From an uncultured Chloroflexia bacterium (GTDB lineage Bacteria; Chloroflexota; Limnocylindria; Limnocylindrales; CSP1-4), in the NCBI GenBank assembly GCA_963817095.1, contig CAWFND010000001.1:88920-152919 (forward strand): DNA of 64,000 nt, read 5' to 3'. Positions within the stretch are counted from its first letter, which is position 1, and every line of letters starts with the position of its first letter. A model generated the notes under the pieces. The model was not told the origin of the DNA and searched no databases. It saw only the letters and a program-made list of their open reading frames with translations. Shown here one piece after another: positions 9,602-34,074 of this stretch. The position numbers were made by a program, and so were the translations under genes.

Positions 9602-10280
9602 TCAGGCCTTGGAGAAGTCCGCCGTCCTGGGAATCAGCGGAGGCGGGGTCCCGATCACGATCGCGATCTCCTCAAGGTTGGTCAGCTGGATCGCGCGCGG
9701 ATCCCCTGCGTGGACGTCGCCGTTGACGTAGACGGCGATCGTCGTCGGGCTGCAGAAGGTCCCGACACACGAGTCGCTGAGGGGCACGCCCCACTCGGTG
9801 AAGAACTGTCCCAGCGTGTTCGGTTCGGGATCCGACGACTCTGTGTGGACGATTCCCGTCACGTCATGCGTGTGCAGCGGCGAGATGCACGGGTCATTGC
9901 ACAGGTTGATGCCGCCGTAGCCCACTGAGCCATCAGGCTCATTGAACCGGCGCACGGCGGGATCAACGATGTTGATGCCGAATTCCTGCCGGTACCACGA
10001 TCGGCTTGCCGTCGACGAACACATCCAGATGGGCGTGGACGTGATTGACCAGGAACTCCTTCGGCCCCGGCTTCAGGCCGGCTTCGACCGTCCGTTCCAT
10101 CGGATCCGGCGGCGCCGGCCAGAGGACGGCTGGACGGGCGGCGGGCGAGGCAGAGCCGCCATCGCTTTGGGATGCCTGGGCGGGGGAGCTCGCCCCGTCT
10201 ACCGCCCGACCTTCGCAGCCGGCGACTAGGGCAAGGCCCGCGATGGCGATTGCGAACGGCAAGGCCAGTGGCCGACGCAT
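9602..10280 (-). CDS. Hypothetical lipoprotein with His motifs, one frameshift near 9980
   Basis: Lipobox LVAGC; HVHAHLDVFVDG; CISPLHTHDVTGIVH. Confidence 0.75.
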
Positions 10281-10439
10281 GACGGTTCCCCTCGCGCCAG
10301 AGTCCCTCGGCCCGTCAGGGTACCGGATCTGACGTCGGTTGATGTGATGTCCGACCCTACGGTCGGATGGCCCATGAGCCGCCGCGGACTCGCACTTTGG
10401 CGAGTGCACAATGGCGATCGTCGAACAGAGGACGGGTTG

Positions 10440-26929: not shown

Positions 26930-27670
26930 TCACGCCGCGGGTCGACCGACGCCCTCCGGCCCGGCCGATCGGATCCGGCGGATCGCCTCCGCAACGCCGC
27001 CCGTCCACGCCTGGCCGTGGCCCGGCAGGACCCAGGCGGCCTCGACCGAGGCCAACCGGTCGAGCGAGGCGATCGCCTGTGCCGGGTCCGCGGTGAACGG
27101 CGCGATCATCGGGCCGGTCGAGCCGCTGGCGACCGACACCGTGGCGAGCGCGTCGCCGACGAGGAGCGCGTCGCGCGAAGCGACATGGAGCGCCGCGCTG
27201 CCGGGCGTGTGGCCCGGGAGATGGATGACGGTCGGCGACCCCGGGACGTCGAGCGTGGCCCCGTCGCCGTACGTGACGACCTCGCCGACGTGGACCGACT
27301 TCAGTCCGCCGTGTCGCAGGCCGTGCAGGAAGAACTTCAGGATCGGGATCGGCCGGATCGGGCCGCTGTCGCCGCCGGGGTTCTTGATCTCGCCGCGGGC
27401 GAGGGCGGCGTCGAGCTCGTGGATGGACACCGGCAGGTGCCGCTCCGTCCGGGCGCGCTCGGCGAAGCCGATGTGGTCGGAGTGGCCGTGGGTCAGCACG
27501 ACCGCCCGGACGTCGTCGAGGCTCCGGCCCATCGCGGTCAGCTCCGTGAGCAGCTCAGACCAGTCGCCCGGCATCCCCGCGTCGACGATCGTGACGGCCC
27601 CGGCCTCCTCGAGGAGGTAGGCGTTGACCAGGCCGCCGCCGAGCCGGTGGAGTCCCGTGGTGATCCGCAT
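26930..27670 (-). CDS. MBL-fold metallo-hydrolase
   Basis: THGHSDHIG, PGHTPGS, VGDA, LPGHG; CACAAT 6 nt upstream of the ATG. Confidence 0.92.
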   Translation of the reverse strand: MRITTGLHRLGGGLVNAYLLEEAGAVTIVDAGMPGDWSELLTELTAMGRSLDDVRAVVLTHGHSDHIGFAERARTERHLPVSIHELDAALARGEIKNPGGDSGPIRPIPILKFFLHGLRHGGLKSVHVGEVVTYGDGATLDVPGSPTVIHLPGHTPGSAALHVASRDALLVGDALATVSVASGSTGPMIAPFTADPAQAIASLDRLASVEAAWVLPGHGQAWTGGVAEAIRRIRSAGPEGVGRPAA

Positions 27671-27721
27671 CGGCCGATTGTGCCAGCGTCGATCCGGTGA
27701 CGCCGGATTGCGGCGGACATG

Positions 27722-27809
27722 AAAACGCCCGAAGGAACCGTCGATCACTAGTTGCCCCGATCAATGCAAGCACCGACCAGATCACCAGATGTTCGAGGCC
27801 CCTCCGGGC
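27722..27809 (-). ncRNA. Candidate small hairpin RNA, copy A (unassigned family)
   Basis: 13-bp terminal stem GCCCGGAGGGGCC/GGUUCCUUCGGGC, apical GGUG-CUUG-CAUU, U-rich tail, TACTGT -10 box upstream; paralog at 28672-28759. Confidence 0.6.
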
Positions 27810-27816
27810 AAGATCA

Positions 27817-27912
27817 ACAGTAGGGGCCGGCGCGTGCCGCGTCCAGCCACTTATCCACGAGGTTCGTGCCGCGGACCCGACAATTCGCGGGGTTGTCCAC
27901 AGCCTGTGCACG
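27817..27912 (-). promoter_or_regulatory. Promoter with three DnaA-type boxes, copy A
   Basis: -10 at 27817-27822; TTATCCACG 27851, TTGTCCACA 27893, CTGTGCACG 27904. Confidence 0.6.
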
Positions 27913-27943
27913 ATCGTCCCGGCCGACGGGTCCCGAATCGACC

Positions 27944-28645
27944 CTACGAGACCGCGGCCTCGAGCGCGATCAGGGCCTCGACCGCTGCCTCGGCATGGAT
28001 CCGGCCCGTGTCGAGGAACGGGAGGCCATCCACCACGGACTCCGTCAGGAGCAGCGGGAGCTCCGTGCCGCCGAGGACGATGGCCTCGACGCCATCGCGA
28101 TCGTGCAGCCGCGCGGCGATCCCGAGGAGCTCGTCGCGACTCTCCGGGAGGAACCGGCCCTCGACCAGCTCCCCGAAGTAGATCGCCTGGAGCCGTTCCT
28201 GGTCGGCCGCCGGTGGCGTGATGCACGTGATCCCGCGGTCGGCGAGCGTCGGGCCGTAGACGTCTGCCCGGATCGTGAATGTCGTCGCGAACAGGCCGAT
28301 CCGCGTCCGGCCGGCGAGGGCGTCGGCCGTCGCCTCGACGATGCTGACGAGCGGGATCGGGCTGGCTGCCCGGATCTGATCGAAGCCGATGTGCCCGGTG
28401 TTCGAGGCGACGATCGCGAGGTCGGCGCCGGCGCGGGCGAGGCGTCGGATCTCGTCCACCAGGCTGTCCACGATGGCCCGCCGGTCGTCCAATTCGAGGA
28501 GCTCGAAGAAGCCGAGGGTGTCGATGCTGTCGACGATCACCCGGAGCGAGCGACCGGTCCGCCGGCCGTAGGCGTCGAGGACGAACCGGTAGTACGCCAC
28601 GGTCGAGGGTGGGGCGATCCCGCCGACGATCCCGAGGATGCTCAC
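27944..28645 (-). CDS. Aspartate/glutamate racemase family protein (catalytic Cys residues absent)
   Basis: LGIVGGIAPPSTVAYY, ASNTGH, IVLGGTELP. Confidence 0.88.
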   Translation of the reverse strand: MSILGIVGGIAPPSTVAYYRFVLDAYGRRTGRSLRVIVDSIDTLGFFELLELDDRRAIVDSLVDEIRRLARAGADLAIVASNTGHIGFDQIRAASPIPLVSIVEATADALAGRTRIGLFATTFTIRADVYGPTLADRGITCITPPAADQERLQAIYFGELVEGRFLPESRDELLGIAARLHDRDGVEAIVLGGTELPLLLTESVVDGLPFLDTGRIHAEAAVEALIALEAAVS

Positions 28646-28671
28646 CCGCGTTCCGGCGGCCGGGCACAACG

Positions 28672-28759
28672 AAACGCCCGAAGGAACCTCGCTCCCGTAG
28701 CCTCCGCCGTCGATGCAAGCACCTGCGTCGTCACTTTCGGTCTCGTGGCCCCTTCGGGC
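28672..28759 (-). ncRNA. Candidate small hairpin RNA, copy B (unassigned family)
   Basis: Stem GCCCGAAGGGGCC/GGUUCCUUCGGGC, apical GGUG-CUUG-CAUC, U-rich tail, TACAGT -10 box upstream. Confidence 0.6.
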
Positions 28760-28766
28760 AAGACCT

Positions 28767-28889
28767 ACTGTAGGCGGCCGGCGTCGGGCTGCCTAGCCCA
28801 GTTGTCCACGAGTTTCGCGGTTCCGGGGCCGAATCCGCGAGGGTTGTCCACGCTCTGTCCACGAAGTCCCCGGAATTCGTTGTGGACGA
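28767..28889 (-). promoter_or_regulatory. Promoter with three or four DnaA-type boxes, copy B
   Basis: -10 at 28767-28772; TTGTCCACG 28802 and 28844, CTGTCCACG 28855, inverted TGTGGACGA 28881. Confidence 0.6.
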
Positions 28890-28890
28890 G

Positions 28891-29391
28891 TCAGCCGTCG
28901 CGCTCGAGGGGCCACGAAGTGCCGCCGTCGAGGCGCGGCAAGCCGAGGTGGTCGCGGGTAAACGCATCGGGCGGTTCCGACGTCCGGCGCAGCTCCAGGT
29001 CGAGGCTGATCCGCAAGGATCCGAACGGCCGACCGTCAGCCGGGGTCGCCGCGAGGCAGACCGTCGACCCATCCACCAGGACGATGTCGTCCGGCGCCCA
29101 CGGCAGGCCGATCACGTGGGTGACGCCAGCGGTCGTCACGGCGTTGCCGTGGATCGTGCCGTCGCCCTCCGGATGCAGGGTCAGGAGCCCCGCCGCCGTC
29201 GACAGCTCGAGATGACTGAATCGACCGTCCGGATCGAGCTCGAGCAGCAGCGAGGACCGGACGCCGCTCCCCTCCCCCGCCACGACGACCTCGCGCCAGC
29301 GGCGCCCACGGCTCCCCTCGGCGACGGACCACGTCACGAGGGATCCGTCCGGCGCCCGGCCCCGGCCGGCGCGGCGGAGCCAGCTCGCCAC
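28891..29391 (-). CDS. Hypothetical protein
   Basis: ORF directly downstream of hflX; WSVAEGSRGRRWRE. Confidence 0.65.
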   Translation of the reverse strand: MASWLRRAGRGRAPDGSLVTWSVAEGSRGRRWREVVVAGEGSGVRSSLLLELDPDGRFSHLELSTAAGLLTLHPEGDGTIHGNAVTTAGVTHVIGLPWAPDDIVLVDGSTVCLAATPADGRPFGSLRISLDLELRRTSEPPDAFTRDHLGLPRLDGGTSWPLERDG

Positions 29392-32429: not shown

Positions 32430-34074
32430 GCGGAGACCAGCACTCCTCGAAGCGCGTAGGGTCCCGCGTGCTCGATCCGGGCCGTCACGAGCCGGCCGAC
32501 GAGCTCCTCGCCGCCCGCGAGATGGACGAGCTTGTTCTGGCGGCTCCGACCCGAGACGCGCGGACCCGGCGCCGGCGCGCGGGCTGCGTCACCGGTCCGT
32601 CGCCGGCCTCGTCGTGGTCGTGACGTCGCGGCGGCGTCACCGTGTCGACGAGGACCTCGACCTCGCGCCCGACCCAGTCAAGGTTCCGCTCGAGCCCGAT
32701 CGCCTCCTGGAGCGCCAGCAGCTCGTTCAGCCGCGCCCGCTTCACCGCAGGCGGGACGTCGTCGGCGAGATGGGTCGCCGGCGTGCCGGGTCGCTCGGAG
32801 TACGCCGCTGCAAAGACCTGGTCGTAGCGGACGGTCTCGAGGAGGCGGAGCGTCGAGCGGAACTGGGCGTCGGTCTCGCCGCAGAACCCGACGATCACGT
32901 CGGTCGAGATCGCGATCCCCGGCACGGCCTCGCGGATCCGGGCGAGCCGCTCGAGATAGTGCTCGACCGTGTACTGGCGGCCCATCCGGCGGAGCACGGC
33001 GTCGTCGCCGGACTGGACCGGCAGGTGGAGGTGGGCGCAGACCGCCGGGCACTCGGCCATCGCCGCGATCAGCCGGTTCGAGAGGTCCCACGGGTGCGAG
33101 GTGACGAACCGGAGTCGCGGGATCGCGGGCACGCCGTCGGCGGTCCGGATCCCGTCGATCGCCCGGATCAGCGCGGCGAGGTCCGGGCGGCCGTGAAGGT
33201 CGAGCTGGCGTCCGGCCCAGCGATCCGTGTCGACGTCGGCGAACCGCGGCTCGGCCGGCAGGTCGTGGCCGTACGAGTTGACGTTCTGGCCGAGGAGCGT
33301 GACCTCGCGGTAGCCGGCGGCAGCGAGCGACCGCGCCTCGTCGACGATCGCGTCGAACGGACCGGCTCCGTTCCGGGCCGCGGCTGAACGGGACGATGCA
33401 GTACGTGCACGTCTTGTCGCAGCCATAGACGATCGGCAGCCAGGCGCTGATCGCCGACTCGCGACGGACCGCGCCGGCCGCCACGGCACTCGCCCTGGTC
33501 CCGGGCAGGTGGTCGGCGGCGCCGACCGTCGTGCGCCCGACGACCGTCGTCGCCGCGCTGGCGAGGCCCACGGCTCCCTGCGCCGACGCCAGCCCGAGCC
33601 GGTCGACCAGCTCCGGCTCCTCGTCGGGCCGCAGGAACAGGTCGACCGCCGGGAAATCGTCGGCGAAGCCCCGCCCGGTCCGGCTCGCGGACGGCGCAGC
33701 CCGTCAGGACGACGCGCATCCCCGGGTTCGTGTCCTTCAGCCGCTGGAGATGGCCCTGGCGGCCGATCACCTTCTGCTCGGCGGCCTCGCGGATCGCGCA
33801 GGTGTTGATCACGATCGAGGTCCGCGACATCCATCGATGCCGCCTCGGCGCATCCGGCGGCCAGGAGACGCCCGGCCATCTCCTCCGAGTCGCTCCGGTT
33901 CATCTGGCAGCCGAGCGTCCAGACGTGGAACGTCGGAAGCGCCGGAGTCTCGGGGCGGTACTCGGCGAGACGCGGGTCCGCGGCCTCGGGCGGCACCGCG
34001 GGCGCGGCCGATGCGCCGGGCACGACGACCTCGAGCACGGGCAGGGCGCGGCCGGGCGGTCGGGTGAGCGTCAT
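32426..34074 (-). CDS. miaB: tRNA methylthiotransferase, frameshifted
   Basis: [40 protein letters not shown]. Confidence 0.95.

Follow-up and report, generated by a model that had tools for sequence, protein, structure and literature searches.

Hairpin small RNA genes preceded by candidate DnaA boxes in an uncultured bacterium of the Limnocylindria

DnaA is known as a transcription factor for a handful of protein genes, and the non-coding DnaA-box clusters datA, DARS1 and DARS2 control DnaA-ATP. In Bacillus subtilis, five DnaA boxes lie upstream of the promoter of sda and are essential for its expression, the binding of DnaA ties the regulatory output to replication initiation, and thdF-gidA-gidB-noc is also under DnaA control (PMC2533591). 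A 2026 paper describes the control of gidAB-parAB by DnaA in Pseudomonas aeruginosa (PMC13438810), and the reverse relation, in which RNA controls DnaA, is represented by an antisense RNA that regulates dnaA in B. subtilis (PMC12112137). The present analysis concerns a stretch of 64,000 nucleotides (nt), here called the window, from an uncultured Chloroflexia bacterium (GTDB lineage Chloroflexota; Limnocylindria; Limnocylindrales; CSP1-4; assembly GCA_963817095.1, contig CAWFND010000001.1, positions 88,920 to 152,919 of the forward strand), and in particular two units, A and B, in which boxes of the DnaA type and promoter-like hexamers precede a hairpin on the minus strand. It is well supported that units A and B are two of at least five paralogous genes of an uncatalogued, lineage-specific family of hairpin small RNAs in the Limnocylindria.

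The units resemble sda and the other promoters of the DnaA regulon (dnaA, ywlC, yydA and thdF-gidA-gidB) in that a cluster of DnaA-type boxes stands just upstream of a promoter, and sda, like them, is a very small gene. They differ from sda, however, in that the product is a non-coding hairpin RNA, that there are at least five paralogous targets per genome and that the host belongs to another phylum. They are also like datA, DARS1 and DARS2 of Escherichia coli, which are dispersed clusters of a few phased, high-quality DnaA boxes outside the replication origin (oriC), but the boxes described here keep a strict spacing to a promoter and to a structured RNA that is conserved. Full-text literature searches returned no small RNA family driven from DnaA boxes and no account of non-coding RNA in the Limnocylindria. 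The Chloroflexota cluster of a bioRxiv preprint (10.64898/2026.10.21.760802) is a different element consisting of TAGTC repeats.

Direct reading and pairwise alignment of the two blocks give the same order of parts on the minus strand, that is, three direct boxes of the type GTGGA(C/T), a -35-like hexamer, a TAnnnT hexamer, CUU, a hairpin of 83-84 nt and a U-rich tail. All the features that follow are on the minus strand. In unit A, box 1 is a weak box read from the sequence (CGTGCACAG, 27904-27912), box 2 (TGTGGACAA, 27893-27901) is one position off the reverse complement of the DnaA box TTATCCACA, and box 3 (CGTGGATAA, 27851-27859) lies 5 nt upstream of the -35-like hexamer TGGACG (27840-27845), which agrees with TTGACA in four of six positions. 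After a spacer of 17 nt comes the -10-like TACTGT (27817-27822, of the form TAnnnT), then 7 nt ending in CUU, and then the hairpin of 83 nt (27727-27809); the predicted RNA A, including the 5' CUU and the tail GUUUUCAUG, extends over about 27718-27812. Unit B has an extra box in inverted orientation (CGTCCACAA on the minus strand, 28880-28888) just past the stop codon of an open reading frame (ORF) of 166 amino acids (aa), and then box 1 (CGTGGACAG, 28855-28863), box 2 (CGTGGACAA, 28844-28852) and box 3 (also CGTGGACAA, 28802-28810). Boxes 1 and 3 were recognized from the sequence and from relatives, and box 2 begins 42 nt before box 3, as it does in unit A. The -35-like hexamer TAGGCA (28790-28795), which is the commonest hexamer at that place in box-bearing units (15 of 113), is separated by 17 nt from the -10-like TACAGT (28767-28772), a TAnnnT at the conserved position, and the hairpin of 84 nt (28676-28759) belongs to a predicted RNA B of about 28665-28762 that includes the tail GUUUCGUUGUG.

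The alignment of A with B is identical in the boxes, the -10 region, the basal stem and the apical GGTGCTTGCAT, and divergent elsewhere. Within the window the octamer GTGGAYAA occurs four times, always inside units A and B, against a mean of 0.56 in shuffled sequences, none of 100 of which reached four. Two copies of the apical GGTGCTTGCAT are present where 0.31 would be expected (two were reached in 3 of 100 shuffles), and exact matches to the 13-mer of the 3' arm, GGTTCCTTCGGGC, are confined to the two units. An initial annotation of this DNA had proposed two blocks of one minus-strand architecture, and each part that it described was found in its place. It had also taken the blocks for a pair of paralogous units; both are real copies, but the search for box and stem motifs finds at least five paralogues in the genome.

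The predicted minus-strand folds have energies of -51.5 kcal/mol for A (z -6.3) and -42.8 kcal/mol for B (z -3.0), and the plus-strand folds -24.2 kcal/mol (z -1.8) and -35.5 kcal/mol (z -2.7), respectively. Covariation among homologues, which had been suggested as a check, is clear. An alignment of 45 distinct A-type sequences contains 34 pairs, of which 14 are compensatory with both sides changed, and 98.7% of its cells are paired; that of 38 B-type sequences contains 25 pairs, 9 of them compensatory, with 97.7% paired. In neither case did any of 500 shuffles score as high as the alignment observed. When the 3' partner was slid, only 37-47% of the cells of the A-type alignment remained paired, and the slid controls over both alignments gave 37-48%. 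The basal stem of 12-13 base pairs (GCCCGRAGGGGCC / GGUUCCUUCGGGC) hardly varies among relatives, and its tandem G.U is kept in all 38 B-type sequences and in 40 of 45 and 44 of 45 A-type sequences; these G.U can pair only on the minus strand. This conservation and the stronger minus-strand fold agree with the earlier description of a stem that needs G-U pairs and closes only on that strand.

An invariant G(CUUG)C core had also been described, and this invariance turned out to extend to copies A and B only. Among relatives the loop-closing pair of the A-type RNAs exchanges between G-C and A-U (29:16), and the C-G pair inside CUUG exchanges with U-A (20:23), CUUG being replaced by UUUA. What had been read as a tetraloop is a covarying mini-stem. 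Some interior segments, furthermore, are conserved to an extent exceeding what pairing requires, namely the 12-mer CAUCUAGUGAUC on both arms of the A-type, which is also kept in a second bacterial family (f4), and CCGAAAG / CUACGG in the B-type. Other paralogues have an additional apical hairpin or two (total length 126-185 nt), or else a loop of 13 nt, GAGAUCACAUCAA (the K-type), which is found in several genera and has the form GAGAUUGCAUCAA in f4.

The hairpins correspond to no family in Rfam 15 (4227 families). At the gathering score the whole window gave no match. At E<=10 nothing fell on the hairpins in the region 27600-29000, where the only match was a chance one to mir-1307 (E 9.3) at another place, and at E<=0.1 seven other loci of the genome, the paralogues included, gave none. 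The initial annotation had recognized no motif of signal recognition particle (SRP) RNA or of 6S RNA, and the Rfam scans of the region, which include the 6S model, were likewise empty. The SRP RNA is a different locus in five of five genomes searched with RF00169 (on contig C21 in the source genome). 6S RNA is comparable in that it is a regulatory RNA that binds protein, has the shape of a long hairpin closed by a conserved stem and sometimes exists as two paralogues; however, it measures about 180 nt and has a large central bubble, whereas the RNAs described here measure 74-185 nt, and A and B are almost fully paired without a large bubble. The candidate was rejected on this ground and on the empty scans of the region and of the paralogues. 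A search with RF00013 in five genomes of the family (G000, G017, G015, G109 and G145, four of them at least 90% complete) also gave no match, but this null result is weak because the model misses 6S RNA in most control genomes as well. Bacterial Y RNAs are similar in their length of about 100 nt, in a conserved basal stem formed by the 5' and 3' ends, in a variable upper part and in their frequent tandem arrangement, and vertebrate Y RNAs are linked to replication initiation. The present family, however, has no tRNA-like module, the TROVE/Ro domain (PF05731) occurs in none of five genomes (three at least 90% complete), and no Rfam match to Y RNA was obtained, so this candidate was also rejected.

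The source assembly consists of 3.35 Mb in 22 contigs, is 59% complete and has a G+C content of 71%. A search for box and stem finds five units in it, that is, A, B, C8:111330-111514 (185 nt), C15:142579-142652 and C22:128840-128915, all of them with boxes, a -35 hexamer and a TAnnnT hexamer, and their interiors are almost completely different. BLAST with copy A gives matches in 21 of 24 genomes of the genus. Among the loci read, A and B form a tandem in 17 of 18, with B first and the two about 330-950 nt apart, and the distance between them differs in 16 of the 17 relatives having both copies, where it runs from about 330 to 900 nt.

Counts for the family, class and phylum refer to sampled genomes and were obtained with a covariance model, R1, built from 35 sequences. 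Of 108 genomes of family f1, 98 have between 1 and 5 matches to R1, and the 42 genomes of the small-genome sister family f2 have none. In the class sample, 40 of 44 genomes of f1 and 14 of 50 of f4 have matches (13 of 49 when the unpublished genome G235 is set aside), and none of 49, 6 and 1 genomes of f3, f2 and f5, respectively; in the phylum sample no match at E<=1e-4 was found in 136 genomes outside f1, f2 and f4. The exact stem pattern is present in at least 119 public contigs, and nearly all among the matches listed are labelled Chloroflexota, Candidatus Limnocylindria or Limnocylindrales. Also among the matches listed, four contigs labelled Dormiibacterota, Gaiellaceae, Verrucomicrobiia and Anaerolineaceae bear genuine units, one of them near-identical to that of a genus member, and these labels are probably binning or labelling noise. 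The contigs labelled Dormiibacterota and Gaiellaceae carry box-promoter-hairpin units of the C15 type, to be read either as mis-binning or as an occurrence outside the Chloroflexota.

A pattern of box, N38-46 and stem gives 18 matches in five other genomes, 3-5 in each and dispersed round the chromosome, against none for the reversed control. The tandem linked to hflX is nearly opposite dnaA, at 49% and 46% of the circle in G109 and G145, both of which are single-contig genomes. In G126 the two loci share a contig of 3.13 Mb and are separated by 1.58 Mb, about 48% of the genome. No link to the terminus is claimed, because the other paralogues are dispersed and the three genomes share synteny.

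These distributions bear on the explanation that the hairpins are inert terminators or palindromes of the repetitive extragenic palindrome (REP) kind, and that the likeness of the two blocks is a functionless local duplication. Both hairpins do lie between co-directional genes and have U-rich ends, and the 3' arm has short matches elsewhere. On the other hand, BLAST finds only two copies in the 3.35-Mb assembly and the five motif-defined paralogues diverge inside, so that REP elements and miniature inverted-repeat transposable elements were rejected, and the dispersed near-identical copies against which the earlier annotation had cautioned do not exist there. In addition, TAnnnT and the boxes keep a fixed distance, and the family is retained in those 98 of 108 genomes of f1 and in a second family with compensatory changes. 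The explanation by inert palindromes is already largely refuted and must be considered highly improbable. The lack of an Rfam match, the lack of dispersed copies and the covariation together support a small RNA family of conserved structure, as had been proposed.

In high-G+C bacteria TTGTCCACA is a variant of the DnaA box. Read as its reverse complement, the high-affinity DnaA box TTATCCACA (PMC5835720) equals TGTGGATAA and CGTGGATAA or is one position off them, and boxes 2 and 3 fit either this sequence or the form TTATNCACA (PMC2533591) in 8-9 of nine positions. The genes dnaA and dnaN are adjacent on contig C14, and the spacer between them, the predicted oriC, contains TGTGGACAACC, CGTGGACAACG and TGTGGACAGAT, further GTGGAC/GTCCAC cores and an AT-rich stretch; box 2 of unit A is identical to TGTGGACAACC, the first box of this spacer. 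In three relatives the dnaA-dnaN spacers also have 4-5 cores and an AT-rich stretch. The DnaA protein of the source genome matches PF00308, PF11638 and PF08299 (94 bits), the last being the C-terminal helix-turn-helix, and its ATPase domain is present. The octamer GTGGAYAA occurs 40 times in the 3.35-Mb assembly. The five RNA units account for 8 of these sites and oriC for 2, and a weak GidB-like ORF and an ORF of 172 aa are each preceded by 2. The longer TCGTGGAYAA has 8 sites in the assembly, of which 5 front the RNA paralogues and 1 the GidB-like ORF. The 9-mers noted earlier as DnaA-type match the DnaA consensus with 0-1 change, recur in oriC and keep a fixed spacing in relatives, which is good circumstantial evidence that the boxes may serve as DnaA-binding sites.

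Two of the other box sites were seen as follows. At L224 (C14:76619-76660, minus strand), near a contig end, the box pair GTGGATtcGTGGATAA and the hexamers TTGACG / TAACGT lie upstream of the GidB-like ORF, of which the match to the N-terminal GidB (rsmG) Pfam model has an E value of 1e-4, below the cut-off. At L225 (C8:390228-390260, minus strand), three direct GTGGAC boxes 12-13 nt apart are followed by a promoter-like TACCAT, a long leader and the 172-aa ORF, which has no Pfam match and no Atlas match; this locus may be another member of the same regulon.

The arrangement of the boxes is strict across the family. A CGTGGAYAA-like box with at most one mismatch is present in 117 of 137 distinct units and ends 41-43 nt before the stem in 113 of these 117. 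A second GTGGAY core stands 41-42 nt upstream of this box (box 3) in 98 of the 117 units. At the place of box 1, 52 units have a third such core, at 52-53 nt before that of box 3, and others have degenerate forms, for example CGTGGGAAC. Box 3, with the consensus cgAAacTCGTGGATAAg, is the best-conserved upstream element, and over the 137 units the information content is high in the boxes and in TA...T and low between them. Of 136 units, 129 have TAnnnT at a constant distance from the stem, preceded at 16-19 nt by a -35-like hexamer, and in 113 of the 129 units with a recognizable TAnnnT a box lies 0-12 nt from the -35. Among the public pattern matches listed, the box is at the expected place in 122 of 138. 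The link between box and hairpin is conserved across about 20 genera and two families. The box starts are about 11 and 42 nt apart, corresponding to one and four helical turns, so the three boxes would face the same side of the DNA. A consensus RNA fold of the upstream 125 nt gave 0 pairs in 76 units versus 23 for the hairpins; the boxes are therefore DNA signals, and the possibility that they are part of a longer structured RNA was rejected on this result.

The transcription of units A and B is plausible. Three soil metatranscriptome runs contain parts of the window, although these data are contigs, which carry no information on ends or strand and may include DNA carry-over. Runs X1 and X2 are probably one data set because they are equal in size and gave identical results. 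The RNA-library contigs cover 27730-27879 of unit A and 28618-28768 of unit B with one mismatch each in 150-151 nt, and a contig from a relative covers 27709-27909. Within 27600-29000, near-identical contigs are confined to the two units (27721-27912 and 28618-28768), together with two short partial pieces. Reads from relatives map best to conserved blocks such as these, and the uncovered neighbouring genes are given no weight as evidence.

From these results a DnaA-controlled promoter that drives a self-terminating hairpin RNA, with an invariant base as a handle and an upper part giving specificity, is on balance a probable reading. Each gene would have its own promoter of the sigma-70 type, with a modest -35, a spacer of 17-18 nt and TAnnnT, and the predicted start of transcription is CUU, some 6-7 nt past the -10. 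When folded, the RNA would be one long, almost fully paired hairpin, of which the basal stem and the short U-rich tail would form the gene's own terminator, probably a leaky one. DnaA bound cooperatively to the three boxes would set the rate of transcription, and activation is the likelier sign because box 3 ends 5 nt from the -35 and because sda of B. subtilis provides a precedent. In this way the RNAs would report the state of DnaA and of replication initiation. The invariant base may be a handle that all the RNAs have in common, probably one for processing or for binding the same protein, and the design of an invariant base under exchangeable modules points to a common partner. The arms and loops peculiar to each paralogue (CAUCUAGUGAUC in the A-type, CCGAAAG / CUACGG in the B-type and GAGAUCACAUCAA in the K-type) would give each RNA its specificity, and the RNA would act in trans on targets.

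Several observations weigh against this reading, the first of them concerning the identity of the binding protein. No oriC box in the source genome or in three relatives is conserved as strictly as box 3 and its flanks (cgAAacTCGTGGATAAg), so a dedicated regulator with a similar site would also fit. The small RNA family would then be real and have its own promoters, but its boxes would be bound by a lineage-specific factor of which only the site resembles a DnaA box, with no link to replication; direct repeats about 11 nt apart are, moreover, typical of response-regulator sites. Against such a factor stand the agreement of the 9-mers with the DnaA consensus to within one change, the identical TGTGGACAACC that opens the dnaA-dnaN spacer, and the rarity of GTGGAYAA (those 40 sites in 3.35 Mb), of which the other clusters are in oriC and before the weak GidB-like gene, both classic contexts for DnaA. 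We consider a factor other than DnaA unlikely.

The second group of observations concerns the boxes themselves, since 16 of the 129 units, nearly all of the A-type, have no adjacent box, and four A-type copies of f4 fetched separately have none either. The idea that the boxes compensate for a weak -35 is unsupported, the mean match being 3.66 of 6 in units with boxes versus 3.31 in units without (Mann-Whitney p 0.23). The box-less copies are equally difficult for the explanation that the primary function lies in the DNA, that is, that phased box triplets at five or more loci per genome titrate or recycle DnaA in the manner of datA and DARS, that the strong transcription unit next to them does no more than modulate how far DnaA occupies them, and that the RNA product is secondary. 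This explanation draws on the presence of several dispersed, high-quality box clusters per genome and on the modulation of E. coli datA by read-through transcription from a neighbouring stable-RNA operon (PMC10950094). It cannot, however, account for the selection on RNA pairing that is seen in the compensatory changes and the kept G.U, and transcription runs away from the boxes, so a role confined mainly to titration is distinctly unlikely.

The third group concerns the ends of the transcripts. A generic consensus scan of 27600-29000 calls no promoter and no terminator, the terminator scan requiring at least five T in eight; the -10 hexamers share only 3 of 6 positions with TATAAT, and the U tract is 3-4 U long. 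One RNA-library contig runs 67 nt upstream of the predicted start of RNA A, and another continues past hairpin B for 58 nt and enters the next gene. The 3' end, a GC-rich basal stem followed by GUUUUC or GUUUCGUUGUG, is conserved in relatives. Because the generic scan calls none, the labels of promoter and terminator rest on comparative conservation and not on consensus strength; the -10 box and U-rich tail of the initial annotation are present at conserved positions, but are recognized by the scan neither as promoter nor as terminator.

The same features would be expected if the box promoter drove the downstream gene and the hairpin were a cis-acting 5' leader or attenuator, that is, a conditional terminator or a stabilizing structure. 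The short U tract, the uncalled terminator and the contig that enters the gene after hairpin B agree with this, as does the co-directional gene that lies within about 60-100 nt of four of the five paralogues. The downstream genes of the paralogues are, however, mutually unrelated, being those of a metallo-beta-lactamase (MBL) hydrolase and a racemase and two ORFs read as pyrophosphatase-like and purine-nucleoside-phosphorylase-like, where the names inorganic pyrophosphatase and purine nucleoside phosphorylase are a reading of the translations only. In addition, what comes after unit B in most genus relatives is the unit A promoter instead of a gene, the C15 paralogue and its neighbour converge, and the MBL gene has its own -10-like CACAAT. 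A leader function in cis is therefore quite unlikely.

The last group concerns targets. A search for targets complementary to the arms had been suggested, and no conserved target was found. In genome scans with the reverse complements of five conserved RNA segments, the counts, leaving aside the RNA genes themselves, were within those of shuffled motifs. The best match over a start codon, 11 of 12 positions in a solute-binding protein gene on contig C8, was rejected as chance, since only 12 of 61 genomes of the family have an orthologue of this gene and the 11 others do not keep the match. Another match, which stands before the gene of an MFS transporter and resembles an operator palindrome, was also rejected. 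The duplex energies of RNAs A, B and C22 with the 5' region of dnaA and with oriC were, in a crude test, not below those of 40 random windows (z -0.4 to +2.0).

In the window, a lipoprotein-like gene with its ATG near 10280 has in its 5' region a small hairpin (about 10335-10360, minus strand). The loop of this hairpin, GACAUCACAUCAA, is one letter off the K-type loop GAGAUCACAUCAA, and the hairpin has neither boxes nor the basal stem. The K-loop-like word at about 10339 of the window was considered as a target and rejected because it has the same sense as the loop.

The genes around units A and B, all on the minus strand, give the context. The 166-aa ORF (28891-29391) lies directly upstream of unit B and after hflX and has no Pfam match; clusters that look alike to it in a language model carry PF06475 (glycolipid-binding) with scores of 0.93-0.94, which is a lead only. 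In genus relatives the 3' end of this ORF (..WPLE..) directly adjoins box 1 of unit B. The gene that separates the two units in the source genome encodes an Asp/Glu racemase (27944-28669; PF01177, E 2.3e-34), and the shortest spacings between B and A in relatives are too small for a gene of its size. Downstream of unit A is a gene of the MBL fold (26930-27670; PF00753, E 9.9e-30); the -10-like CACAAT (27677-27682) ends 6 nt before its ATG at 27670, and from this position the mRNA would be leaderless. Elsewhere in the window, a miaB-like ORF (32485-34074, minus strand) has a garbled middle of low complexity, and an overlapping frame (33168-33830) has the expected MiaB-like sequence, which suggests two frameshifts caused by an assembly error or a broken gene.

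Even without the link to DnaA, these genes represent a well-supported new RNA family for Rfam, of unusual design in that an invariant basal stem with a tandem G.U lies under exchangeable upper modules. If the boxes are real DnaA sites, five of the eight best extended boxes serve RNAs, and RNA would be the chief read-out of initiator status in an abundant uncultured lineage of soil and freshwater. It is possible, although at present doubtful, that throughout the class the main transcriptional output of DnaA is not protein genes but a set of about five paralogous hairpin RNAs with one protein handle and differing specificity modules, forming an RNA-based signal of the replication state. If this is true, the system would do with RNA what the Sda checkpoint does with a protein, or would feed back on DnaA or on the replisome, and it would be the first dedicated circuit from DnaA to small RNAs.

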